A stretch of DNA of 33,604 bases from a bacterium (GCA_020049465.1 JAIFKS010000168.1:1-33604), one strand, 5' to 3'; positions 1,191 through 32,430 are shown, numbered from the stretch's first letter. Program-made: numbers and translations. The notes: generated by a model not told the origin, from the letters alone.

Positions 1191-1456
1191 GTTGTCTCCG
1201 GCGGCTCAGACGGTGGGGGCCTGAACGAGACGATTCTGAGGCCGGTAGCCTAGGCCCAGGCCATTTGCCCACCTCATCATGCCTGAAGATTTCCCGCATG
1301 GGAAGTTGAAACCGCCAGGCTGCGCCGACCGCCACCTGGGGGCCCGCCAGCGCGCCGCCAGTTCATCCTTGCCGATGCGCGCGCCCACCGGCGATATTGC
1401 CGGCGGAAACAGACTGCATTCGTCACCGGAGAGCCGGACTTCCAGGGGGAACTGTG

Positions 1457-2749
1457 ATGATGAAATGGTCGAGAGTGTTCTTCATGGTGCTGCTCGCGGG
1501 CCTGGTGACGCTGGCACCGTCAGCCCAGGCGATCGACAAGGGCACGGCCGAGCTCGGCATCTTCGGCCGGGTTTCGTTCTTCGACCCGGCGTTCGACATC
1601 GCCGACTGGGGCGGCCCCGGCCTTCGCGCCGGCTACTTCCTGGCCAATGACCTGGCGCTCGAAGCCGACGCGTCGTTCACCAGCACCGACGGCATCATCA
1701 CCGAAGGTCTGCGTCAGGACGTGCAGGTCATGCCGTTCCACGCCCGCCTGATCTGGAATCGCCCCGTCGGCGAGCAGACCCATCTGCTGCTGGGCGCCGG
1801 CTACACGCACATCGAGTACGGCGACGACGTCAACGCTTCGGGCGACGGCGCGGGCGCCCTGATCGGATTCCGCTACCAGACGCTGGAGAACCTGTCGTTC
1901 CGCTTCGAAGCGACCGCCGACTGGTACAGCGACAACGATCTCACCGAAGAGTCGGATCCCATCGACTTCGGCGTGCAGTTCGGCTTCAGCGGCCTGTTCG
2001 GCGGCGGCCCGGGCGACCGTGACAAGGACGGCGTCACCGACGACCTGGACCTCTGCCCCGAGACGCCGCGCGGTGAAGCCGTCGACGCCAAGGGTTGCCC
2101 GCTGCCCAAGGACAGCGACGGCGACGGCATCATGGACGACGCGGACAAGTGCCCCGACACGCCGAAGGGCGACAAGGTCGACGCCCGCGGCTGCACGCTG
2201 CCCAAGGACAGCGACGGCGACGGCGTCACCGACGACAAGGACAAGTGCCCCGGCACGCCGAAGGGTGAAAAGGTCGACGCCAACGGCTGCGCCCTGCCCA
2301 AGGACAGCGACGGCGACGGCGTCACCGACGACAAGGACAAGTGCCCCGGCACCGCCGCCGGCACCAAGGTCGACGCCAACGGCTGCCCGCAGCTGTTCGA
2401 GGAGACCAAGGGCACGCTGGTTCTTGAAGGCGTGAACTTCGCGACCAACAAGGCCGATCTGGACGCCGGCGCGCACGAGGTGCTCGACCGCGTGGCGATC
2501 AGCCTGCTGGCCTATCCGGAGATCCGCGTCGAAGTGGCCGGCCACACCGACAGCAAGGGCTCCCGCGCCCTGAACGTGCGCCTGTCCCAGAAGCGCGCCG
2601 AATCGGTGCGCGACTACCTGATCGGCAAGGGCATCGGCGCCGAGCGCCTGGTCGCCAAGGGCTACGGGCCGGACAAGCCCATGGCCACGAACGACACCGA
2701 CGAAGGCCGCGCGCAGAACCGCCGCACCGAGCTGAACAAGCTGGACTGA
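1457..2749 (+). CDS. OmpA family outer-membrane protein: N-terminal beta-barrel region, four thrombospondin type-3 (TSP3, Ca-binding) repeats, C-terminal OmpA_C peptidoglycan-binding domain
   Basis: Start ATGATG at 1457 after AGGGGGA. Signal peptide MMKWSRVFFMVLLAGLVTLAPSAQA|ID. Repeats DSDGDGVTDDKDKCPGTPKGEKVDANGC. C-terminus …NFATNKADL…RVEVAGHTDSKGS…LSQKRAESVRDYL…GYGPDKPMATNDTDEGRAQNRRTEL is a canonical OmpA_C. The ORF-track start at 1397 adds a non-signal N-extension. Confidence 0.9.
   Translation: MMKWSRVFFMVLLAGLVTLAPSAQAIDKGTAELGIFGRVSFFDPAFDIADWGGPGLRAGYFLANDLALEADASFTSTDGIITEGLRQDVQVMPFHARLIWNRPVGEQTHLLLGAGYTHIEYGDDVNASGDGAGALIGFRYQTLENLSFRFEATADWYSDNDLTEESDPIDFGVQFGFSGLFGGGPGDRDKDGVTDDLDLCPETPRGEAVDAKGCPLPKDSDGDGIMDDADKCPDTPKGDKVDARGCTLPKDSDGDGVTDDKDKCPGTPKGEKVDANGCALPKDSDGDGVTDDKDKCPGTAAGTKVDANGCPQLFEETKGTLVLEGVNFATNKADLDAGAHEVLDRVAISLLAYPEIRVEVAGHTDSKGSRALNVRLSQKRAESVRDYLIGKGIGAERLVAKGYGPDKPMATNDTDEGRAQNRRTELNKLD
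2014..2397. repeat. Four tandem 96-bp coding repeats (TSP3 repeat units of the OmpA-like gene); units 3 and 4 nearly identical at DNA level
   Basis: Repeat units begin at ~2014, 2110, 2207 and 2303 (gacagcgacggcgacggc…tgccc…aaggtcgacgccaacggctgc). More than 50 nt of identical DNA is shared by units 3 and 4. Confidence 0.8.
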
Positions 2750-2845: not shown

Positions 2846-3089
2846 ATCCCGACCTGAACCATCCTGCATGCATCGACATGATTCGCGCGGGAACCGTTGA
2901 CCCGCGGGGTGGCGCGTGATTGAATGGCCGCTCTCATCCACCGGGGACACCCCTGGCCACCGCGGATACGCGCGCGGCCTGTCCCGTCGTGTGGCTTCGT
3001 CGAACTTCCAGCCATGGAGGTGGGCGCCGCCAGTATCGCCTTGTTTTTCATTTGGTCATGACATCCCGATCATTGTCAGGAGATCACGC

Positions 3090-5402
3090 ATGAAAAAGAC
3101 ACTGCTTCACCTGCTGGGGCTGGCGATCGCGCTGACGCCTCTGGGTGCGTCGGCGGGGCTGGACAACAAGACCGACAGCTTCGGCGTCTACTTCGACAAC
3201 GCTGGCAACACCACCACGAAGACCGTTGGCGTGTTCACGCCGTTCCCGGTGTATCTGCTGCTCATGAACCCGACCGGCACGCTGACCGACGCGTTTGAGT
3301 GCACGGTCACCCCGACGGGTGCGCCGGTCTTTATCCTGGGCACCGACCTCGGTCCGGTCGCTCTGGACATCGATGCTTCCGCCAACGGCTTCGCCGTGGG
3401 CCGGGCGTCGCCGTACCCGATCGCCAACGACGCGATCGTGCTGGTGACCTGGAGCTTCATGGTGCAGGCGCCCACGCCGCTGGAATTCCGCATCACGCAG
3501 GCGACGATGAACTCGATCCCGGGCTCCGGCGTGCCGGTGGTCTCGGGAGGCGGCCTTCTGCGTCCGTGCCAGGTGTCGACCTGCGATGTCACGCTGCCGG
3601 TCGCGGCGGTCAATTCATCCTACGTGCCTATCATCTGCGACGACCCCCCGCTGCCGACCGACCTCCACGTCGGCGTGACGGCGACCTGCGGTGACCTTCA
3701 GGATTCCCGGGTCCTGGCCGCCACCACGGCGGTGGCCACCGACGACTACGACGGCAATCTCGACATCCCGAAACCCGCGCCGCCTCCGGGCAACTACGTC
3801 CAGGCCAGCTTCGAGCACGTCGGCTGGCCGCTCGGGCCGCGCTTCCGCGCCGACGTTCGCCGGCGCTACGATCCCCTGGCCGCATACCAGACCTGGCCGC
3901 TGATGGTGGAAACCGACCGTTCCGGCGACATCGTCCTGACGTTCGACTCGAGCCTCGCCCAGAGCGACGGCGCCCTGCTCTACCTGCGCGACCTGCAGAG
4001 CGGCCAGTTCTTCAACCTGTTCCCCGACCTGCGATTCGTGTTCACGAACAACGGTCTGCCGAACACCCATCGCTTCGAACTGCTGGTCGGCGCCGCGCCG
4101 GTGCCGCCGGCCCTGAACCCGGCCACCCGCGATCTGCCGGTCGGCTGGTCGATGGTGGGGATGCCCCTGACGCCGAACGCAGGCGCCACCGTCGGCACCC
4201 TGCTCACCGGCCCGGCGCCCGGCTACGCGTTCGTCTACGACTTCCTGCCCACGCAGGGCTACGGCCTCCGGCAAGACACGGACGCCGTATACGAAGGAGC
4301 CGGCTACTGGCTGGCCACCGACACGGCCTTCACCTGGTCGGCGCCGGGCACGCGCAACCTGGACGGCGTCACCAGAGGGCTGCACAACGGCTGGAACCTG
4401 ATCAGCTACGCGAACTGGTTCCCCGGACCGGTCGAAGGTCTCCGTGTCATCCGCTACGGCGTCACCTACGACTGGCAGACCGCCGCCCAGATGGGCCTGG
4501 TCTCTGCCGATGTCCAGTCGTTCGACCCCGCCGGCGGCAGCTATGTCGAGGTCGTGAACCTGCAGCCGTGGTACGGCTACTGGATCAACGCGCTGCAACC
4601 GGACCTGTCGTTGAAATTCTACTGGGGCAATTTCGTGCAGTTGCCCAAGCGGCTGACGACGGACAAGTCGGCGCTTGATCCCGACGACGACTCCTGGCAG
4701 TCCGACCTGACGCTGGTCGACGCCGCGGGTCAGCGGCGCACGATCACCCTGGGCATGAACACGCACGCAACGGCCGGCTTCGACGCACAGCACGACAAGC
4801 CGCAACCGCCGCAGTCGCCGGCCGGCGGACCGCTGCTGATGTTCAACCGTCCGGAATGGGAACTGGCCGCCGGCAACGACGAGAGCGTGTCGTGGACGGT
4901 CGTGCTGAGTTCCCCGAATCCGGGCCGCGCCGCGCTGACCTGGGATCCGAAGGAATGGCCGGAGGGCGTCGACTTCCAGCTCTACCTGCCGCACGAGAAC
5001 CGCGTGGCCATCATGTCGATGCGCAAGCAGACGACCTACACCACGGTGCTTGGTTCCATGGCGACGCAGGTCGTTGTCCGGACCCCCAGCTTCACGTCGA
5101 GCGTCGATGCGCCGGTGGGCACGGACTTCGGTGTGTCGGTCTCGCCGAACCCGTTCAACCCGCAGACCACCGTCGCCTTCGACCTGCCGCAGGCGGCGCG
5201 CGCCGAAGTGCGCGTCTACTCGGTGCGCGGCGAACTGGTGGCCGTGCTCGGCGGCGGCAGCTACGGCGCCGGCCGCCATCTGGAAGTGTGGCGCGGCGTC
5301 GATCGCCAGGGCCACGAGGTGCCGAGCGGTTCGTACTTCGCGCGCCTTCATGTCGACGGCAAGGCGAAGGGTCCCGTTACCAAGATGAGTCTGGTCCGGT
5401 AA
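3090..5402 (+). CDS. Large secreted protein of unknown function with a C-terminal FlgD-Ig-like / T9SS type-A (Por_Secre_tail-like) sorting domain; paralog A
   Basis: ATG at 3090 after AGGAG (7-nt spacer). Signal peptide MKKTLLHLLGLAIALTPLGASAG. C-terminus …SPNPFNPQTTVAFDLPQAARAEVRVYSVRGELVAVL…GRHLEVWRGVDRQGHEVPSGSYFARLHVDGKAKGPVTKMSLVR matches the PNPFNP…GxYFxRL…KMxLLK signature. Strongly paralogous to 6212..8524. The ORF-track start at 2916 (GTG) adds a non-signal extension. Confidence 0.85.
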   Translation: MKKTLLHLLGLAIALTPLGASAGLDNKTDSFGVYFDNAGNTTTKTVGVFTPFPVYLLLMNPTGTLTDAFECTVTPTGAPVFILGTDLGPVALDIDASANGFAVGRASPYPIANDAIVLVTWSFMVQAPTPLEFRITQATMNSIPGSGVPVVSGGGLLRPCQVSTCDVTLPVAAVNSSYVPIICDDPPLPTDLHVGVTATCGDLQDSRVLAATTAVATDDYDGNLDIPKPAPPPGNYVQASFEHVGWPLGPRFRADVRRRYDPLAAYQTWPLMVETDRSGDIVLTFDSSLAQSDGALLYLRDLQSGQFFNLFPDLRFVFTNNGLPNTHRFELLVGAAPVPPALNPATRDLPVGWSMVGMPLTPNAGATVGTLLTGPAPGYAFVYDFLPTQGYGLRQDTDAVYEGAGYWLATDTAFTWSAPGTRNLDGVTRGLHNGWNLISYANWFPGPVEGLRVIRYGVTYDWQTAAQMGLVSADVQSFDPAGGSYVEVVNLQPWYGYWINALQPDLSLKFYWGNFVQLPKRLTTDKSALDPDDDSWQSDLTLVDAAGQRRTITLGMNTHATAGFDAQHDKPQPPQSPAGGPLLMFNRPEWELAAGNDESVSWTVVLSSPNPGRAALTWDPKEWPEGVDFQLYLPHENRVAIMSMRKQTTYTTVLGSMATQVVVRTPSFTSSVDAPVGTDFGVSVSPNPFNPQTTVAFDLPQAARAEVRVYSVRGELVAVLGGGSYGAGRHLEVWRGVDRQGHEVPSGSYFARLHVDGKAKGPVTKMSLVR

Positions 5403-6211: not shown

Positions 6212-8524
6212 GTGATGCGCCGAAGGTTCATGTTGATCGCGATGACGTGCGCTGTGTTTCTGTCGGTGGGAGGCTGGGCGATGGCCCAGGACAAGGATAC
6301 CGGCCTGGTGAACACGCCGGTTTCGGTGATGATCACCGGTGAAGGCGAGACGATCATCGCCAGCACATCCTCCGGGGCCCTCGACGGCTACGACGGCACG
6401 GATGTCGTCGACGGCAGCTACAATCTGACGATTCCCCACACCGATTGGCCCGGATCACCGGCAACGAAGTACTCCCGCGACAACCGCGCCGTCTACGACC
6501 CGACCGTCGCGATGAAGACCTGGGTCTTCACGGCCACAGCGGCGGATCCCGTCACAAACGGGTACCAGGTCGACCTCTCGTTCACGGCCAGCTTCACGGC
6601 CGACTCCGGAATCGGCCTGCTGCTCCACGACCGCGCCACCGGCAGCACGATCGACCTGCGCGCCGCCGGCATGCAATACGGCTATTATGCCTCCGGAACG
6701 CGGACCTTCGACCTGACGATCGGCAACCCGACGCCGCCGACGACGCCCGAGTACACGATCGACATCGCCACGACCTGCGGCCTCTACTACGATCCCCTGA
6801 CCCGCGCCGCCACGGACAACGAGGCCACCGACGGTTTCGACGGCGCCCTCGAAACGCCCGAACCCACGCCGCCGCCCGGCAACTACCTTTGCACGAGCAT
6901 GGAGCACGCCGACTGGCCCCTGGGCCCGCGCTTCAGCGCTGATGTGCGGGCGGCGTTCGACCCCACGGTCGCATCCGGGTTCTGGCCGCTGATGGTGGAA
7001 ACCGACCAGTCCGGCTACGTCGTGCTGAACTTCACGCCCAATTTCGCGGCGAACGCCGGGATCGGGCTCCAGTTGCGCGACCTGCAGACGGGTCTCGTCC
7101 TGGACCTGTTCCCGTCCTTGTCCTACACCTACGTGAACCACGGCGTCGCCACGGTCCGCCGCTTCGAGCTGAGCCTCGGCGCCGTGCAACCGCCGGCGTT
7201 GAATCCCACCAGTCGCCCGCTGCCGGCGGGGTGGTCGATGGTGGGCCTGCCGTTGGCGCCTCCCGCGGCCGCCAGCACCGTCGGTGACGTGCTGCTCGAA
7301 CCGTCGCCGGGTTATGCCTACGCCTTCACCTACGGCCGCTACGGCGGTTATCAGTCGGTGGCGGCGACCGCGACCGCTTCTCCCGGCATCGGGTACTGGC
7401 TGGGCACGTCGACCGGATTCAACTGGACGATGACCGGCACCCGTTTGCTGGGCGGCGTCACGGTGCCCCTGACCAACGGCTGGAACCTGATCGGCAACGC
7501 CAACTGGTTCCCGGCCCCGTTCGAGGGCCTGGTCGTCCTGCTCAATGGCGTCTCCTACGACTGGCTGACCGCCGTGCAGTTCGGCCTGGTCTCGGCCGAC
7601 GTGCAGAGCTACGACGCGGCGAGCGGCGCCTACTTCGACGCCGTCGATCTCCAGCCCTGGCAGGCCTACTGGATCAACGGGCTGACCGACAATCTCATCC
7701 TGCGCTTCAAGTGGGAGAACTTCCAGCAGATGCCCGCGCGCCTGGCCGCGCCGCCGGCGACCGACAAGGCGGTCACCAGCGACTGGCATACCGATCTGGT
7801 GCTGACCGACGCGCTGGAAAAGTCGCGCGCCGTCACCTTCGGCGTCGCGTCGCTGGCCACCGCGGCCTTCGACCCGCTGTACGACCGCCCCATGCCGCCC
7901 GCCTCTCCGGACGGCGGTCCGTCGCTGTCGTTCCAGCATCCCGAATGGGCGCTGGCCGCCGGCAACGCGTTCACGCGCGACCTGGTCGGACCGGCTGACG
8001 AGCCCGTGAGCTGGACCGTGGCGATGACCCAGCCCAAGGCCGGCGCCGCCACGCTCAGCTGGGATCCGGCGAACTGGCCGGAAGGCGTCGACTACCAGCT
8101 GTACTTCCCCCACGAGAACCGGGTGGTCGTGATGTCGATGCGTCATCAGACCAGCCTTACGGTCGATGTGGGACCGCAACCGCTGACCGTCGTCGTGCGC
8201 ACGCCGGACCTGACCTCCGACGTGGGCGATCTGCCGATGGTCGGCGACTTCAGCCTGTCCGCGCAGCCGAACCCGTTCAACCCGATCACCACGGTGTCGT
8301 TCAACCTGCCGCAGGCGGGACGCGCCGAGATCCGCATCTACTCGCTGCGGGGCGAACTAGTGGGCGTGCTCGGCGGGCACGACTATGAGGCCGGACGCCA
8401 TCAGGAAGTGTGGAACGGCCGCGACCGTCAGGGCCGCGAGGTGCCCAGCGGCTCGTACTTCGGCCGACTGCATGTCGACGGCGAGGTGCAGGGCCCGGTC
8501 GTCCGCATGAGTCTGGTGCGGTGA
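6212..8524 (+). CDS. Large secreted protein with a C-terminal FlgD-Ig-like / T9SS type-A sorting domain; paralog B (contains an internal duplication of the N-proximal module)
   Basis: GAGGAGG at 6203..6209; start GTG 6212 or ATG 6215. Signal peptide MRRRFMLIAMTCAVFLSVGGWAMAQ. Module ETPEPTPPPGNYLCTSMEHADWPLGPRFSADVRAAFDP…WPLMVETDQSG matches paralog A. C-terminus …QPNPFNPITTVSFNLPQAGRAEIRIYSLRGELVGVL…GSYFGRLHVDGEVQGPVVRMSLVR. Confidence 0.85.
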   Translation: MMRRRFMLIAMTCAVFLSVGGWAMAQDKDTGLVNTPVSVMITGEGETIIASTSSGALDGYDGTDVVDGSYNLTIPHTDWPGSPATKYSRDNRAVYDPTVAMKTWVFTATAADPVTNGYQVDLSFTASFTADSGIGLLLHDRATGSTIDLRAAGMQYGYYASGTRTFDLTIGNPTPPTTPEYTIDIATTCGLYYDPLTRAATDNEATDGFDGALETPEPTPPPGNYLCTSMEHADWPLGPRFSADVRAAFDPTVASGFWPLMVETDQSGYVVLNFTPNFAANAGIGLQLRDLQTGLVLDLFPSLSYTYVNHGVATVRRFELSLGAVQPPALNPTSRPLPAGWSMVGLPLAPPAAASTVGDVLLEPSPGYAYAFTYGRYGGYQSVAATATASPGIGYWLGTSTGFNWTMTGTRLLGGVTVPLTNGWNLIGNANWFPAPFEGLVVLLNGVSYDWLTAVQFGLVSADVQSYDAASGAYFDAVDLQPWQAYWINGLTDNLILRFKWENFQQMPARLAAPPATDKAVTSDWHTDLVLTDALEKSRAVTFGVASLATAAFDPLYDRPMPPASPDGGPSLSFQHPEWALAAGNAFTRDLVGPADEPVSWTVAMTQPKAGAATLSWDPANWPEGVDYQLYFPHENRVVVMSMRHQTSLTVDVGPQPLTVVVRTPDLTSDVGDLPMVGDFSLSAQPNPFNPITTVSFNLPQAGRAEIRIYSLRGELVGVLGGHDYEAGRHQEVWNGRDRQGREVPSGSYFGRLHVDGEVQGPVVRMSLVR

Positions 8525-10512
8525 CCTCGGCCCGACGGAGTCTGCTTCTGCTGTCTTTCGTGCTGCCCGTCGCCCTCTGGACGGGCAGCACTTCCTACGA
8601 ACCCGCCAAGCTCCTGCTCTGGGCGCTGACCGCGGCGGCCTGGGCCGCGCTGCTCGCGGCGGCCGTCCTGCGTCGCCGCACGCTGACGATCCCCGCGCGC
8701 GGCCTTCTTCTGGCCGCCGGCTCCCTGCTGCTGGTGATGCTGCCCGGCCTGTGGCGCGCCACCGCGCCCGCGCTGGTCGCCCGCGCGATGATCTGGTCGG
8801 CGCTGTGGTGGCTGACGGTGATGACGGCCGCGCTGGCGTTGCGCGAGAGCCGCGATCTTCGGCGACTGCTCTGGTGCGCCACCGGCGGCACGGCCGTGGT
8901 GTGCCTGTACGGCCTGCTGCAGATCGCGCAGATCCTGCCCGGTCCGGGCCACTGGAGCGTGCCGGCCGGCATCAGCACTCTCGGCAACGAGAACTACGTG
9001 GCCGAACTGGCGGCGCTGTGGCTGCTGCCGTCCTTGTTGCTCGTCGCGGGCGCCACGGGAACGGCGAGACGCGCGGCCGCTGCAGCCGTGGTCCTGCTGC
9101 TGCTGGGCATGCTCGCCTTCTCGTCCGCCGCCGCCGCGCGCATCGCCGCGGTGGCCGCCGCCGCTTTCGCGCTGGCCGGCTGGCTGCTGATGCGTTCGCG
9201 CTGGAGCCGTCACCTGCCGGTCGCGCTCGGCGCGCTGGTGCTTGCCGCCGTCGTGACTTCCGGGGCGATGGTGGCGCAGGTGCTGGCCCCCGCGCGCGAT
9301 CCCCTTGCTCCCACATCCTGGACCGCGCGCGTGTTCGCGGCCAATCACGGCGACATCCGCCGCACCGACTGGCTGGTGGCGCGCGAGCAGTGGCGCCGGT
9401 CGCCCCTGTTCGGCCGCGGCGCCGGCAACTACGGGGTCGACTGGCCTGGTACCCGCGCCGCCTTGACCAGTTCCGGCGCGTTCACCGGCCTGGCCGAACG
9501 CGCGCCCGTCGCCACGCGCGCGCACCACGAATACCTGCAACTGGCCGCTGAACTGGGCTGGGCCGGTGTGGTCTGGCTGGGCCTCGTCCTGGCGGCGGGC
9601 GCTCTGGCCTGGAACCGTCGCTGGCGCGCGGCCGCCGCCGACAGCGATCGCCACACGATGCTGCTGCTCACCGCGGGACTGGCGGCGGCCGCCGTCACCG
9701 GGCTGGTCAGCTTTCCGGCGCACCTGCCGGCCTCGGGTTTCGCTCTCGCGCTGCTGGTGGGCGCGCTGGCCTCGCCGGCGTGTGCGCCGGGCGCCGCGAC
9801 GGCCCGCACCACGCGGCTGCCGCGGTGGACCGCGGTTGCGCCCGCATTCGCCGCGCTCGCCTTGATGGTCGGCGCCGTGCGCGCGTTCGAAGGCGACCTC
9901 CTGGTCGCGCGCGGTTCGCGTCTGTTCGTGGAGGGATCATTGGATGCGTCGGTGGCGCCGCTGCGCGCGGGCATCGCGCGCCTGCCCTGGCCGAACGAAG
10001 CGCGCCTGTACCTCGGTCTGGCGCTGGCCGCCGCCGGCAAGCCGGACGAGGCCGCGCCCATGCTGGAGGCCAGCCTGCGCGACCGCCCTTCGTTCGAAGC
10101 CCTGCTCGGCCTCGCGGAACTGCACGTGGACGGCCGCCGCTTCGACCGCGCCGAGGAACCGCTCGTGGTGGTCGAAAGCTGTCGACCGGCGCTGACCTTC
10201 CAGCAGCAGGCGGGGTACCTGCGCGCCCTGGCGGCGCTGCGCGGCGAAAAATGGGACGAGGCGCGCATGCGGTTCACGACGCTGGTCGACAACGATCCGG
10301 GCGACCACCGCAGCTGGCTCGGGCTGGGCTACTTCCACGCGCTGCGGGGCGAGCCGCTCATGGCCGCCGACGCCTACCGCCAGGCGGTGGCGGCGATCGA
10401 GAAGAAGATCGCGGCGCCGGCCCCGGACACGGCCGCCGCGCGTGGGCAGACAACGCGACTGCGGCAGCAGCTGGCGACGGCCCGGCGGGCCCTGGCTTCG
10501 GTCACGGACTGA
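8521..10512 (+). CDS. O-antigen ligase / O-antigen polymerase family (Wzy_C) polytopic membrane protein with a C-terminal TPR-repeat domain
   Basis: GTG at 8521 overlaps the TGA of paralog B (GTGA), i.e. translational coupling. The N-terminus is hydrophobic from that start. It has >8 predicted TM helices. Motifs GRGAGNYGV and RAHHEYLQLAAELGWAG match the GxGxGxF…HxxxLxxxxExGxxG signature of the WaaL/PglL/Wzy_C family. The C-terminal ~200 aa are TPR-like (…YLGLALAAAGKPDEAAPMLEASL…GLGYFHALRGEPLMAADAYRQAV). The ORF-track start at 8410 would overlap 115 nt of the upstream gene. Confidence 0.75.
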   Translation: MTSARRSLLLLSFVLPVALWTGSTSYEPAKLLLWALTAAAWAALLAAAVLRRRTLTIPARGLLLAAGSLLLVMLPGLWRATAPALVARAMIWSALWWLTVMTAALALRESRDLRRLLWCATGGTAVVCLYGLLQIAQILPGPGHWSVPAGISTLGNENYVAELAALWLLPSLLLVAGATGTARRAAAAAVVLLLLGMLAFSSAAAARIAAVAAAAFALAGWLLMRSRWSRHLPVALGALVLAAVVTSGAMVAQVLAPARDPLAPTSWTARVFAANHGDIRRTDWLVAREQWRRSPLFGRGAGNYGVDWPGTRAALTSSGAFTGLAERAPVATRAHHEYLQLAAELGWAGVVWLGLVLAAGALAWNRRWRAAAADSDRHTMLLLTAGLAAAAVTGLVSFPAHLPASGFALALLVGALASPACAPGAATARTTRLPRWTAVAPAFAALALMVGAVRAFEGDLLVARGSRLFVEGSLDASVAPLRAGIARLPWPNEARLYLGLALAAAGKPDEAAPMLEASLRDRPSFEALLGLAELHVDGRRFDRAEEPLVVVESCRPALTFQQQAGYLRALAALRGEKWDEARMRFTTLVDNDPGDHRSWLGLGYFHALRGEPLMAADAYRQAVAAIEKKIAAPAPDTAAARGQTTRLRQQLATARRALASVTD

Positions 10513-15229: not shown

Positions 15230-16297
15230 TTAGTTAAGGATTTCGTTCAGCGCCTGGGCAAAGTCCGCTGACTTCGCGATCAGGCGTCCATCGATCGCCG
15301 CAAGCGTCTCCGCGTAGCTGGACGCCGCCGCGCCGCCCACCAGAAGGCCCACTTCCGGGGCCAGCAGGCGCCGCAGCGTCTCCAGTTGTCCGGCCACGAC
15401 GGCATCGCCGGCGGGATAGATCAGGCTCACGAAAACGGCGCGCGCCTGCCGCTGGGCCGCCGCCGCCGCGATTTCCTCGGCGGGCAGATCGGCGCCCAGG
15501 TAGAGAACGGCCCAGCCCGCCTCGAGCCCGAGCGAAGCGGCCATCAGGGCGCCCAGTTCGTGCCGGTTGCGCAGCGGCGTGGCCACGACCAGCAGAGGGG
15601 CGCCGGAATCGGGCACCTGGCTCGCGTTCGCGGCGGCCAGGAAGGAATGGACGATGGTCGAGGCCATGTGCTCGTGCGCGATGCGCAACGTTCCCTGGCG
15701 CCACAATTCGCCGACCCGGGTCAGCAGCGGTGCGAGCAGCTCCTGCCTGAGCACCGGCCGGCTCAGATGCAGGGTCGCCTGCGAAAGCACGTTTTCGAGG
15801 CCCGAGGCATCGAGCGCCGCCACCGCCACCAGGGCCTGCTCCAGCAGCATGTCGGGTGACAGGACCGCTCTTTCGGGCAGGGGACGGCCGGTACGATCCG
15901 GACGCTCCTCACCCGCCGAGCGGCCGGCCGTCGGCATCGCCCCCGGCCCCAGCGCTTCCACCAGCGCCCGCAACTCTACCAGCGGCTGATTCGCCACTTC
16001 GCCGATGCGGTGGTCCGCGGCCGTCAACACGCGCAGCAGGGAAAGCCGTTCGATGTCGAGCTCGGAATAGCGCCGACGCCCCGTCTCCGTGCGCCCGGGC
16101 AGCACCACGCCGTACCGCCGCTCCCAGGCCCGCAACACGAGCTGGCTCAATCCCGTGCGCCGGGCCACCACGGCAATGCTGTGGCGCGGCGTCGTGTCGG
16201 GTGCGGTGGCGGTCGGGATGTGGGCTCCGGGATTCACGGCGGGGACTTTCGTTGAGGGCGGGGCTGGTGACGAACATTCTGGCGTGATGTTAATCAA
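15230..16297 (-). CDS. CarH/LitR-like light-responsive transcriptional regulator: MerR-family HTH + cobalamin (B12)-binding domain
   Basis: HTH HSIAVVARRTGLSQLVLRAWERRYGVVLPGRTETGRRRYSELDIERLSLLRVL aligns with CarH (…[31 protein letters not shown]…). C-terminal B12-binding motifs NRHELG (DxHxxG-type), SLIY and LLVGGAA. The ORF-track start is TTG at 16297; GTG at 16246 or 16237 are alternatives. The stop at 15230 is firm. Confidence 0.85.
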   Translation of the reverse strand: MINITPECSSPAPPSTKVPAVNPGAHIPTATAPDTTPRHSIAVVARRTGLSQLVLRAWERRYGVVLPGRTETGRRRYSELDIERLSLLRVLTAADHRIGEVANQPLVELRALVEALGPGAMPTAGRSAGEERPDRTGRPLPERAVLSPDMLLEQALVAVAALDASGLENVLSQATLHLSRPVLRQELLAPLLTRVGELWRQGTLRIAHEHMASTIVHSFLAAANASQVPDSGAPLLVVATPLRNRHELGALMAASLGLEAGWAVLYLGADLPAEEIAAAAAQRQARAVFVSLIYPAGDAVVAGQLETLRRLLAPEVGLLVGGAAASSYAETLAAIDGRLIAKSADFAQALNEILN

Positions 16298-29257: not shown

Positions 29258-30670
29258 ATGATGGGTAACGAATTCCCGATTCTGGTGGGAACGATCATCC
29301 TGATCTTCTTCGTGACGCTGATCGGGTTCGCGGCGCGCTACAAGCGGTGCCCGTCCGACAAGATCCTGGTCGTCTACGGCAAGATCGGCGGCTCGGGATC
29401 CACGGCCTCGGCCAAGTGCATCCACGGCGGCGCCACCTTCATCTGGCCGGTGCTGCAGGACCATTCGTTCCTGGACCTGACGCCCATGCCCATCGAGATC
29501 AAGCTCGAAGGCGCGCTGTCCAAGCAGAACATCCGCGTCAACACGCCGTCCACGTTCACCGTCGGCATCTCGACCGAACCCGGCATCATGCACAACGCCG
29601 CCGAGCGCCTGCTCGGCCTGACGCAGCAGAACATCCAGGACATCGCACGCGACATCATCTTCGGCCAGATGCGCGTGGTCATCGCCACGATGTCGATCGA
29701 GGATGTGAACGCCGACCGCGAACAGCTGATCGACAACATCACCAAGGGTGTCGAGTCCGAACTGCAGAAGGTCGGCCTGCGCCTGATCAACGTGAACATC
29801 CAGGACATCACCGACGAATCCGGCTACATCGCGGCGCTGGGCCAGGAAGCGGCCGCGCGCGCCATCAACGATGCCAAGCGCAAGGTGGCCGAACAGGTGC
29901 GCGACGGCGAGATCGGCAAGGCCGAAGCCGAGCGCGAACAGCGCGTCCGGGTCGCCGCCGCCCACGCCGCCGCGGTCGAGGGCGAGAACACGGCCAAGAT
30001 CACCGTCGCCAACTCGGACGCCGCGCGGCGCGAACGCCAGGCCGAGGCCGAGCGCCGCGCCGTCGCCACCGAGAAGGTGCAGACGGCGCAGGCCCTGCAG
30101 GAATCCTACACGGCCGAGGAATTGGCCGAACGCGAGCGCGCCCGCCGCGAAGAGGCCACGCAGGTCGCCAACATCATCGTGCCGGCCGAGATCGAGAAGC
30201 GGCGCGTCGAGGTCATCGCCGAAGCCGAAGCCGAGCGCCTTCGCCGCACCAAGCGGGGCGAGGCCGACGGTGTCCTGTTCATGATGACTGCCGAAGCCGA
30301 CGGCCTGAAGGCCATCCTCACGCGCAAGGCGGCGGGCTTCCAGGACATCGTCAAGGCGGCCGAGAACCAGGCCGAACTGGCGGCGCTGCTGCTGATCACC
30401 GAACAGCTGCCGGCCCTGGTCGAGGCGCAGGTCAAGGCCATCTCCAACCTGAAGATCGACCAGATCACGGTCTGGGAAGGCGGCCGCCAGGCGGACGGCA
30501 AAACGTCGACCGCCGACTTCCTGTCGGGCATGGTCGGTGTGCTGCCGCCGCTGCATGAACTGACGAAGAACGTGGGGATCGACCTGCCGCAGTACCTGGG
30601 CAAGGTCAGCGAACGGCTGGATCAGGCTGGAACCCGCGGCGCGGAGCCGATCGGGCCGGGAACCACCTGA
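29258..30670 (+). CDS. Flotillin / SPFH (band-7) family protein (YqiK/FloT-like)
   Basis: ATGATG 29258 after AAGGGAGA. N-terminal TM (FPILVGTIILIFFVTLIGFAA), SPFH domain, long Ala/Glu-rich coiled-coil (EQRVRVAAAHAAAVEGENTAKITVANSDAARRERQAEAERRA…), C-terminal flotillin region. Confidence 0.9.
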   Translation: MMGNEFPILVGTIILIFFVTLIGFAARYKRCPSDKILVVYGKIGGSGSTASAKCIHGGATFIWPVLQDHSFLDLTPMPIEIKLEGALSKQNIRVNTPSTFTVGISTEPGIMHNAAERLLGLTQQNIQDIARDIIFGQMRVVIATMSIEDVNADREQLIDNITKGVESELQKVGLRLINVNIQDITDESGYIAALGQEAAARAINDAKRKVAEQVRDGEIGKAEAEREQRVRVAAAHAAAVEGENTAKITVANSDAARRERQAEAERRAVATEKVQTAQALQESYTAEELAERERARREEATQVANIIVPAEIEKRRVEVIAEAEAERLRRTKRGEADGVLFMMTAEADGLKAILTRKAAGFQDIVKAAENQAELAALLLITEQLPALVEAQVKAISNLKIDQITVWEGGRQADGKTSTADFLSGMVGVLPPLHELTKNVGIDLPQYLGKVSERLDQAGTRGAEPIGPGTT

Positions 30671-30762: not shown

Positions 30763-30780
30763 ACTTGCGCCGGCGCAATT
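30763..30780. repeat. Copy 3 of the REP-like perfect palindrome (acTTGCGCCGGCGCAAtt)
   Basis: Same 14-bp core as at 2830..2843 and 10559..10572. Located between the flotillin terminator and the peroxiredoxin start. Confidence 0.55.
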
Positions 30781-30965
30781 CCCATTCATCCGCTTCGGAT
30801 TGCATGCCCCGTGGATCGCGGTATGGTGTGGCCCATATCCCGATCCATCAGGAGGTCAGCATGACCACGAAGAAGCAAGGGTGTGTGGCCGCCGCCGCGG
30901 GACCGATCACACCCCACCGCTCCCATGAAGAGACCGGTTCCATCCCGTCGCAGGAGGTCCCCCGC

Positions 30966-31562
30966 ATGCAAGCCAGAGTCGGCAGGGAAGCGCCCGATTT
31001 CGAAGCCACCGCCTTCATGCCCCTGACCGGCGACTTCCATCCGGTGAAGCTCTCGGACTACAAGGGGAAGTGGATCACGCTCTGCTTCTATCCGGGCGAC
31101 TTCACCTTCGTCTGACCCACCGAACTGGCGGCGGTCGCCGCTGATCATGTCGAACTGACGAAACTGGGCGTCACTGTGCTGGCCATGAGCACCGACAGCC
31201 GTTTCACGCACAAGATCTGGCAGGAACAGGAACTGTCGAAGATGGTGGAAGGCGGCGTGCCGTTCCCCATGCTGTCCGATGCCGGCGGCAGGATCGGCGC
31301 CGTCTACGGCGTCTACGACGAAGCGGCGGGCGTGGACATCCGCGGCCGCTTCATCATCGACCCGGACTTCGTGATCCGCGCCATGGAAGTGCTCACGCCG
31401 GAAGTGGGGCGCAACCCCGCCGAACTGTCGCGGCAGATCAAGGCCTTCCAGCACGTGGCCAGGACCGGCGAAGTGACGCCGTCGGGCTGGAATCCGGGCG
31501 ACACGACCTTGACGCCCGGACCCGATCTGGTCGGCAAGGTGTGGACCAAGTGGAAGCCGTGA
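30966..31562 (+). CDS. prxU: Selenocysteine-containing peroxiredoxin (AhpC/Prx1 typical-2-Cys fold, PrxU-like): in-frame TGA at 31113..31115 replaces the peroxidatic Cys codon; resolving Cys replaced by Thr
   Basis: ORFs 30765..31115 and 31176..31562 are in the same frame, separated only by TGA. Read-through gives …[55 protein letters not shown]…[16 protein letters not shown]…, i.e. the universal Prx FTFVCPTE active site with C->U. The C-terminal [12 protein letters not shown] sits where 2-Cys Prx have GEVCPAGW. ATG 30966 ([17 protein letters not shown], canonical Prx N-terminus) follows CAGGAGG. An alternative in-frame ATG at 30861, also after GGAGG, would add 35 aa. Confidence 0.85.
31126..31143 (+). 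other. Putative bacterial SECIS hairpin 11 nt downstream of the UGA (Sec) codon
   Basis: UGA(31113..31115)-11 nt-U G G C G G C [GGUC] G C C G C U G gives a 7-bp stem (two G·U wobbles at the base) with a 4-nt apical loop containing G and U. This is the classical position of an E. coli-type SECIS. Confidence 0.5.
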
Positions 31563-31587
31563 GCTGAGCCTCGCGTGAAATGACAAA

Positions 31588-31621
31588 GGCCCCGCTGTCC
31601 ACGACAGCGGGGCCTCGTTTT
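31588..31621. terminator. Bidirectional rho-independent terminator between the peroxiredoxin (+) and lipoprotein (-) genes
   Basis: GGCCCCGCUGUC-cac-GACAGCGGGGCC is a 12-bp perfect stem, followed by UCGUUUU. On the minus strand it is preceded by AAA (UUU in the minus-strand RNA). Confidence 0.75.
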
Positions 31622-31629
31622 CCGGCCGG

Positions 31630-32430
31630 CTACGGAGATGCGCCGTCTCCGGCCTCGAACACGGCCAGCGGCGCCATCTTCGCCTTGTGCAGCTTCAGGA
31701 TGCTGCCGTCCGTGGTGTAGTTGTCCGCGGATTCAAGGGCTTCCAGGAAAGCGCTTTCGATCTCCAGGTCGGGGCAGAACATCTTGGTGGCGCCCATCGC
31801 CGAGAAACGGATCCGGTCACCCGGCAGGTACTCCACGCCGCCGAAGAACGTGTTGCAGCCGCCGAAGCCGTTCACACGGTTGCCTTCCCCGGCGAACACC
31901 AGGAACGGCGCCTTGCGATCGGCGGGCGCCTTCACCGGCTTTCCACGCAACTCCACCAGGCGCCACGTGCGCGGCGCCACCAGTGCTTCCGGCGCGGCGC
32001 GGTCCTTCGTCAACAGGTAGCGATCGGCCAGATCGCCGGTGATCCGCTGTCCCTGCCGATCCAGCTGGAAGAGCACGTTCTCGCCGACCCGATAGGACGA
32101 CGGCCCGTCGTCAAGACCCTGCAGCCGAACAATGCCGCCGGTCTCGTCCCAGCTGAACGCGCCCTGTTTTTCGAAGACCTGCGCGTCCCGGCCCAGGTAG
32201 CGGGTGGTCACCGCATAGGTCAGGTCGCTGTTCAGCGTGACCGTGGTCTCGATGCCTTCGCAATCGGCGCAGGGCGTCACGCCCCGATAGACGCCCGGCC
32301 AGTCCACAGCCGTGGAGCTGCCATCCATCGTCGCCGGAAAACCAGCGTCGGCGGCCGGCTTCGTCGCGGCGCAACCGGTGGTCGCCAGGATCGCGGCCAT
32401 CATCGACATCACGATCAGGCGTGCTTTCAT
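31630..32430 (-). CDS. Lipoprotein with NlpE N-terminal-like domain (CxxC) fused to a META/HslJ-like domain
   Basis: ATG 32430 after GGGAGA (7-nt spacer). Lipobox MMAAILATTGC|A. Motif WPGVYRGVTPCADCEGIETTVTL (NlpE_N-like). C-terminal …NGFGGCNTFFGGVEY…RIRFSAMGATKMFCP…ESAFLEAL (META domain). Confidence 0.8.
   Translation of the reverse strand: MKARLIVMSMMAAILATTGCAATKPAADAGFPATMDGSSTAVDWPGVYRGVTPCADCEGIETTVTLNSDLTYAVTTRYLGRDAQVFEKQGAFSWDETGGIVRLQGLDDGPSSYRVGENVLFQLDRQGQRITGDLADRYLLTKDRAAPEALVAPRTWRLVELRGKPVKAPADRKAPFLVFAGEGNRVNGFGGCNTFFGGVEYLPGDRIRFSAMGATKMFCPDLEIESAFLEALESADNYTTDGSILKLHKAKMAPLAVFEAGDGASP

Follow-up and report, generated by a model that had tools for sequence, protein, structure and literature searches.

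A PrxU-type peroxiredoxin gene with a probable selenocysteine codon at its active site in an uncultured high-G+C bacterium

The 33.6-kb stretch of bacterial DNA analyzed here (JAIFKS010000168.1; hereafter the window, with coordinates counted from its first letter) contains prxU, a gene at 30861..31562 that is interrupted by an in-frame TGA. The comparative data suggest, with a probability that we place at roughly 0.9, that this is one peroxiredoxin gene of the PrxU type with the Prx1/AhpC fold, and that its peroxidatic residue is selenocysteine (Sec).

Two open reading frames, 30765..31115 and 31176..31562, lie in the same frame and are separated solely by TGA 31113..31115, as the initial annotation of this DNA had it. 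In the read-through translation, this codon falls within the active-site context PGDFTFV-U-PTE. Gene calling by the Joint Genome Institute (JGI) starts at ATG 30861 in four assemblies and breaks prxU into fragments of 84 and 125 residues.

The peroxidatic position and decoding of the internal UGA

One genome was scanned for each species, and the 80 best loci (L001-L080), which carry about a dozen phylum-level labels, make up the orthologue set. Chloroflexota form the majority; the other labels include Thermodesulfobacteriota, Acidobacteriota, Ignavibacteria, Zixibacteria, Planctomycetia, Armatimonadota, Fibrobacteraceae, one Bacillota isolate and a Krumholzibacteriia metagenome-assembled genome (MAG). 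One of the TGA orthologues, L040, is from an isolate, Desulfothermobacter acidiphilus 3408-1. The codon homologous to 31113..31115 is TGA in 79 of the 80 loci and TGC in the remaining one (L048). The prxU locus was also recovered, with 99.85-99.95% identity to the window, from four independent metagenome assemblies of the same strain population (JGI 3300028549, 3300033512, 3300033518 and 3300033519), which show strain-level single-nucleotide polymorphisms (SNPs) elsewhere in the sequence and TGA in all four cases.

The family assignment was made with the 233-residue product, in which Cys was put in for the stop/Sec. This product scores 361.4 bits against NF040737 (peroxi_PrxU), an NCBIfam equivalog model whose cutoff is 270 bits, and residues 5-232 align with profile positions 1-230 of 233. 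Against TIGR03137, the AhpC equivalog, the score is 172.8 bits, which is under the cutoff of 272. The Pfam domains are AhpC-TSA and 1-cysPrx_C, and a model of a Cys-form homologue predicted with AlphaFold2 (AF2) has a mean predicted local distance difference test score (pLDDT) of 85 in the core. The initial annotation had placed the TGA at the peroxidatic Cys position and called for an alignment as a check; alignment with human peroxiredoxin-2 (PRDX2; E = 9e-45) puts it exactly there. The catalytic Thr of the PxxxTxxU motif (as defined in PMC13188914) and the catalytic Arg are both retained (Table 1). By its sequence, the prxU product is a member of the known, curated PrxU selenoprotein family, to which the window gene adds one member, from a subclade and a host that had not previously been studied.

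Codons beyond the TGA are constrained. The open frame after it is exactly 148 codons long in six of seven close orthologues; codon differences from the closest genome (L001, the Krumholzibacteriia MAG) are 38 synonymous and 11 non-synonymous; and the six strain SNPs in this part of the gene comprise four synonymous and two conservative changes. The downstream codons are under purifying selection, from which we infer translation past the UGA; Sec is probably inserted at codon 85 in the window's organism. The earlier proposal of a recoded Sec codon is thus sustained by the conservation of the codon, the PrxU model match, the downstream constraint and the covariation of the SECIS hairpin described below.

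Several other explanations of the TGA were weighed. The one that survives best, although it is itself very unlikely, is decoding of UGA without selenium, either under a TGA-sense genetic code (4 or 25) or by a near-cognate tRNA that inserts Trp, Cys or Arg. The inserted residue cannot be proven from sequence alone, and among the 120 best database homologues Trp is recorded at the Sec position in 45, with one further Arg and one Leu. These entries are probably gene-caller artefacts on short contigs in which TGA was read as sense; since TGA is an ordinary stop in the window genes, the Trp entries are best explained as code-4 miscalls. A TGA-sense code is excluded because TGA ends 15 of the 26 window genes, prxU among them, and an internal TGA occurs in prxU only. 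Moreover, catalysis would be lost with Trp or Arg as the peroxidatic residue, and near-cognate read-through needs no SelB-type hairpin with a conserved loop G-U. The consequence for databases is that standard annotation pipelines break a real gene and, in these 45 homologues, give the active site a false Trp.

The initial annotation had raised two alternatives of its own, a pseudogene and a sequencing error. A peroxiredoxin gene killed by a nonsense mutation at its active-site codon would account for the 84- and 125-residue pieces returned by standard callers. It would also fit the lack of visible Sec machinery: no selA, selB, selD or tRNA-Sec gene lies within the window or in the extra 2.5 kb of L081, an observation that also counts against Sec insertion. 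The TGA is nevertheless conserved across phyla, the frame beyond it is open with synonymous changes outnumbering non-synonymous ones, and the downstream hairpin covaries. The cross-phylum conservation and the downstream purifying selection together refute the pseudogene for practical purposes. No more credible is a split gene, in which an 84-residue N-terminal polypeptide and a C-terminal polypeptide assemble without a peroxidatic residue. A GTG start is present at 31176, but it lies 20 codons past the TGA and would delete the PTELAAVA helix that is conserved in all orthologues, and there is no conserved restart site after the TGA. An error of sequencing or assembly that conceals a true TGC or TGT is the least probable of all: L048 does have TGC in an otherwise identical context, but the four assemblies that keep the TGA differ from the window by strain-level SNPs, and closer relatives of the window in the protein database, present only as C-terminal fragments of 134-145 residues, are likewise truncated or miscalled at this codon. 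Conservation of the TGA, its recurrence in independent assemblies, purifying selection and stop-codon usage therefore rule out pseudogene, sequencing error and alternative code, and favor a Sec codon.

The hairpin downstream of the UGA

A Sec codon in bacteria is accompanied by a SECIS, a sequence element for Sec insertion, and the initial annotation had assigned this role to a 7-bp hairpin with a GGUC loop at 31126..31143. Comparison with a published consensus and covariation across the family both uphold the assignment. The window stem (31126..31132 with 31137..31143) contains seven pairs, five Watson-Crick and two G-U. The distance from UGA to loop is 17 nt (31116..31132), and no indels occur here in the 81 sequences of the SECIS alignment, which is gapless in the hairpin region. 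The bSECISearch consensus (PMC13188914, Fig. 2A) specifies: an apical loop and an upper stem of 3-9 nt and 4-16 bp, respectively; a G at loop position 1 or 2, with G or U usually next to it on the 3' side; a UGA-loop spacing of 16-37 nt; and a minimum free energy (MFE) of -7.5 kcal/mol or lower. The element agrees on all four counts, with: a 4-nt loop on a 6-7-bp stem; an early loop G; a 17-nt spacing; and an MFE of -13.2 kcal/mol for 31113..31160, the hairpin by itself giving -10.8 kcal/mol.

The alignment provides a further line of evidence. RNAalifold independently predicts a 6-bp stem that pairs columns 15-20 with 25-30. Compensatory double changes are seen in four stem pairs, mostly at third-codon or synonymous positions, and pairing holds in 92% of cells. 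None of 500 shuffles reached the covariation score of 0.328, the shuffled value being 0.169 +/- 0.012. In each of the 81 TGA forms at least five of the six stem pairs are intact; the energies range between -13.2 and -6.2 kcal/mol, and the loops are GGUC (42), AGUU (37), GGUU (1) and AGUG (1).

Some results weigh against this assignment. The stability of the hairpin is not above that of shuffled sequence at 68% G+C (z = -0.53); the fold of 31113..31160 that the initial annotation had called for has an MFE within the consensus range and a stability that is unexceptional. Because of this z value, the single-sequence fold is not used as evidence here, and the comparative data carry the case for a SECIS. 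The stem also lies within the conserved coding sequence LAAVAA, so its conservation is partly protein-driven. Owing to the GCN repeat that makes up the stem, 90% of cells still pair when the 3' partners are slid by -3, but the covariation score is then lower, at 0.123. Finally, there was no Rfam match for the whole window at gathering thresholds, and a sensitive scan of 31080..31200 returned chance-level matches to small RNAs and microRNAs; Rfam is without a model for the prxU SECIS element.

The two ends of the loop (31133 and 31136; alignment columns 21 and 24) themselves co-vary, as G..C in 42 sequences, A..U in 36, G..U in 1 and another combination in 1. Both are synonymous third-codon positions, and closure of a 2-nt loop is not expected.

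Cys-containing relatives, which the initial annotation had suggested looking for, were found in five cases (L048 and L091-L094). The hairpin is perfect in L048, retains five of six pairs in L091 and L092, and retains three of six in L093 and L094, both isolates, with energies of -1.4 and -2.1 kcal/mol. The three closer Cys forms thus retain the hairpin and the two diverged ones have lost it. Such graded decay, in only five Cys forms, is consistent with a structure that is tied to the UGA. The L048 locus (3247-3294), from an Acidobacteriota MAG, combines TGC at the Sec codon with an intact hairpin of -12.5 kcal/mol and a GGUC loop, and looks like a recent Sec-to-Cys conversion that carries a fossil SECIS.

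Proposed catalysis, the N-terminal arm and a second start site

Based on established peroxiredoxin and Sec-insertion biochemistry, production and turnover of the enzyme would likely involve: recruitment of SelB with Sec-tRNA(Sec) by the downstream hairpin, and insertion of Sec at the internal UGA; reduction of a hydroperoxide by the selenolate, which Thr82 and Arg161 would hold in the PxxxTxxU pocket and which would be converted to a selenenic acid; resolution of the oxidised Sec to a selenenylsulfide, for which Cys8 on a flexible arm is the leading candidate; and reduction of the selenenylsulfide by a thioredoxin- or glutaredoxin-type reductant. The terminal UGA at 31560 lacks a hairpin of this kind and serves as a stop.

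The third step requires a resolving thiol. The initial annotation had noted that the C-terminal resolving Cys is replaced by Thr, and the sequence GEVTPSGW bears this out: position 206 is Thr in 76 of the 80 orthologues, Met in 3 and Ala in 1, and is never Cys. Because of this replacement, resolution must come from elsewhere. Cys8 appears to be the most plausible internal resolving thiol. Cys75 is a less likely candidate, because the LCFYPGD stretch in which it lies is a core beta-strand in the peroxiredoxin fold. The enzyme had earlier been described as a single-selenol, PrxU-like peroxidase; the second half of this description agrees with the NF040737 score, while the first is not established, given that Cys8 and Cys75 are both invariant.

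Cys8 lies in an N-terminal arm in which Cys8, Val9 and Gly14 are invariant, Cys8 being present in all 80 orthologues. The codons of the arm vary synonymously: Cys8 is TGT in 44 and TGC in 36, and Val9 and Gly14 are each written with four different codons. As synonymous codons vary freely while the residues stay fixed, the arm is under protein-level selection and is no artefact of gene calling. A Shine-Dalgarno (SD)-like motif precedes the first start codon in 65 of the 80 orthologues. The Cys8 motif is kept in either form, Sec or Cys, and across the two subclades, the clostridial arm reading GCARPTGGP. In the AF2 model of the Cys-form homologue, confidence for the arm is low (pLDDT about 45-62), too low to bear on docking of Cys8.

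Some homologues (P0034, P0038 and P0049), planctomycete versions among them, have a signal-peptide-like hydrophobic N-terminus ahead of the Cys motif; one of the three is a Neorhodopirellula pilleata protein that bears the name PrxU. Such an N-terminus points to exported versions of the enzyme.

The arm is followed by a second potential start. An in-frame ATG, GTG or TTG occurs at the homologous internal place in 78 of the 80 loci, and GGAGG or AGGAG is found at -18..-4 of this start in 73 of the 78. When the protein was fixed and synonymous codons were redrawn in 500 resamplings, the expected count was 24.0 +/- 3.7, with a maximum of 35. The residues encoded at the internal SD vary, with 57 different four-residue strings among 68 sequences, and the clostridial subclade has its internal SD and start arranged likewise. 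The feature extends to the homologous place in L085-L094. These data show nucleotide-level selection on the internal SD and start across phyla, which would provide for a second, shorter isoform. It is plausible that both starts are functional and yield a long and a short form. The initial annotation had suggested alternative N-termini from ATG 30861 and ATG 30966, each behind a GGAGG, and the excess of internal SD motifs lends support to this suggestion.

One possibility would be that the two ribosome-binding sites (RBSs) make two proteins of different chemistry: a long form, in which Cys8 resolves Sec via an intramolecular or intersubunit selenenylsulfide; and a short, single-selenol form that depends on an external thiol. 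This division of labor is tentative, and on the present sequence comparisons we consider it rather doubtful. Compatible with it are the protein-level selection on the arm, the nucleotide-level selection on the internal SD and start, and the retention of the Cys motif in the exported planctomycete versions. If true, it would give the long PrxU form an "N-terminal 2-Cys-like" mechanism. The searchable literature, without the founding 2001 PrxU paper, yielded no account of either the Cys arm or the internal RBS. The Cys arm, the internal RBS and the covariation of the loop ends are family-wide and could explain recycling without the usual resolving Cys. As an architecture of the whole family, the dual start together with the Cys arm is of modest interest.

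Table 1. Coordinates of prxU and of features within and beside it.
Feature	Position	Strand	Remarks
SD GGAGG, long form	30851..30855	+	5-nt spacing to ATG 30861; read from sequence
prxU coding sequence (CDS), long form	30861..31562	+	233 codons including probable Sec85; own terminal stop TGA 31560..31562
35-residue N-terminal arm, motif GCVxPAxGP	30861..30965	+	Cys8 = TGT 30882..30884; Val9, Gly14
Internal SD-like GGAGG within CDS	30953..30957	+	8 nt before ATG 30966; strongest SD-like peak in gene
Internal ATG at canonical peroxiredoxin N-terminus	30966..30968	+	would begin 198-residue short form
Cys75 codon TGC, strand LCFYPGD	31083..31085	+	invariant in 80/80 orthologues; opposite Phe of PRDX2
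Thr82 codon, catalytic Thr of PxxxTxxU (P78, T82, U85)	31104..31106	+	invariant column; aligned with PRDX2
UGA probably read as Sec85, peroxidatic residue	31113..31115	+	orthologue conservation; PRDX2 alignment; sole internal TGA in window genes
Predicted bacterial SECIS hairpin	31126..31143	+	family-conserved stem 31127..31132 / 31137..31142; loop GGUC 31133..31136
Arg161 codon, catalytic Arg (IRGRFIID)	31341..31343	+	invariant; opposite Arg of YRGLFIID in PRDX2
Thr206 codon ACG at resolving-Cys position of typical 2-Cys peroxiredoxins	31476..31478	+	GEVTPSGW; GEVCPAGW in PRDX2
14-bp G+C-rich hairpin between convergent prxU and NlpE/META genes	31586..31616		terminator scan match on minus strand; plus-strand tail CGTTTTCC

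Genomic surroundings and comparison with known systems

In the window, prxU is preceded by a flotillin-like gene (29258..30670, +) and faces a convergent NlpE/META lipoprotein gene (31630..32430, -). The hairpin between the two convergent genes is likely a bidirectional terminator, if weakly indicated, as the scan gave 1 match against 0.8 expected from shuffles. The promoter scan found no sigma-70-like site upstream of prxU. Beyond prxU itself there is no gene synteny with the closest genome (L001), and across 81 prxU loci there is no universal operon partner. The commonest neighbors of these loci are: rubrerythrin (8), a rubredoxin-reductase-like flavoprotein (7) and a FUR-family regulator (6); followed by desulfoferrodoxin, a ferritin-like protein and a flavodiiron protein (5 each). 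These recurrent neighbors are anaerobe oxidative-stress genes. The clostridial-type loci L085-L089 have a divergent gene for an 87-residue glutaredoxin (PF00462) on the opposite strand, about 350 nt upstream, whose product is a possible dedicated reductant.

A scan of the window for in-frame TGA codons returned no other selenoprotein gene, at thresholds too strict to re-find prxU, so that others are possible. Its one candidate, at 15857..15859 (+), was rejected as spurious, since it is antisense to a gene at 15230..16297 (-). The latter encodes a fusion of a MerR-family regulator with B12-binding domains (PF13411, PF02607, PF02310), an architecture that we take to resemble the light-responsive repressors of the CarH/LitR type. 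Elsewhere in the window, 2916..5402 (+) and 6212..8524 (+) encode proteins of about 800 residues whose only recognised domain is C-terminal and FlgD_ig-like; 1397..2749 (+) encodes an OmpA-family protein that carries thrombospondin type 3 repeats; and 8410..10512 encodes an O-antigen-ligase/TPR protein. Together these look like a cell-surface gene cluster.

Sec-containing peroxiredoxin is an experimentally verified prokaryotic selenoprotein (PMC13188914, citing Sohling et al. 2001), and was present in 12 bacterial genomes, mostly of anaerobes, in a 2006 survey (PMC1794560). The initial annotation had called such enzymes rare. This was an overstatement, in view of the curated NF040737 model, the listing in PMC13188914 and the occurrence of TGA in 79 species-level genomes here. 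The correct reading of prxU would likely mark the uncultured, high-G+C bacterium of the window as a selenium user.

The closest comparison is with PrxU of Eubacterium (Peptoclostridium) acidaminophilum and the NF040737 family, which like the window protein have Sec in PxxxTxxU and no C-terminal resolving Cys. The purified E. acidaminophilum enzyme reportedly has 203 residues with Sec47, which corresponds to the short form. Clostridial-type loci share the layout of the window: a Cys arm; an internal AAGGAGG with ATG; the UGA; and a hairpin at the same offset, with an AGUU loop. The two subclades differ in sequence, the window type reading U-PTELAAVA with the arm GCVxPAxGP and the clostridial type U-ATEVSAVAEKY with the arm GCARPTGGP. 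In contrast to E. acidaminophilum, the window host is uncultured and has 68% G+C.

The seleno-peroxiredoxin CLOST_2406 of Clostridium sticklandii is annotated with Sec84 in 240 residues, a long form (PMC3091704, Table 2). The window protein, with probable Sec85 in 233 residues, is likewise a long form. CLOST_2406 belongs to the clostridial subclade and a low-G+C host, and related contigs have a divergent glutaredoxin upstream, where the window has the flotillin-like gene.

Typical 2-Cys peroxiredoxins (PRDX2, 1QMV; Salmonella AhpC) have the same fold and active-site residues, with about 50% identity over 186 residues (E = 9e-45 to 2e-44). The window protein departs from them in three respects: probable Sec in place of the peroxidatic Cys; Thr in place of the resolving Cys; and an extra, Cys-bearing N-terminal arm.

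The predicted SECIS element can be compared to that of E. coli fdhF and to the bSECISearch consensus. Each is an in-CDS hairpin directly after the UGA, with a small loop that contains a central G-U and a spacing within 16-37 nt. GGUC is likewise the loop of fdhF, with one more nucleotide between it and the UGA. Unlike these elements, the window hairpin has no evident bulged U, a short conserved stem of 6-7 bp, and co-varying loop positions 1 and 4.

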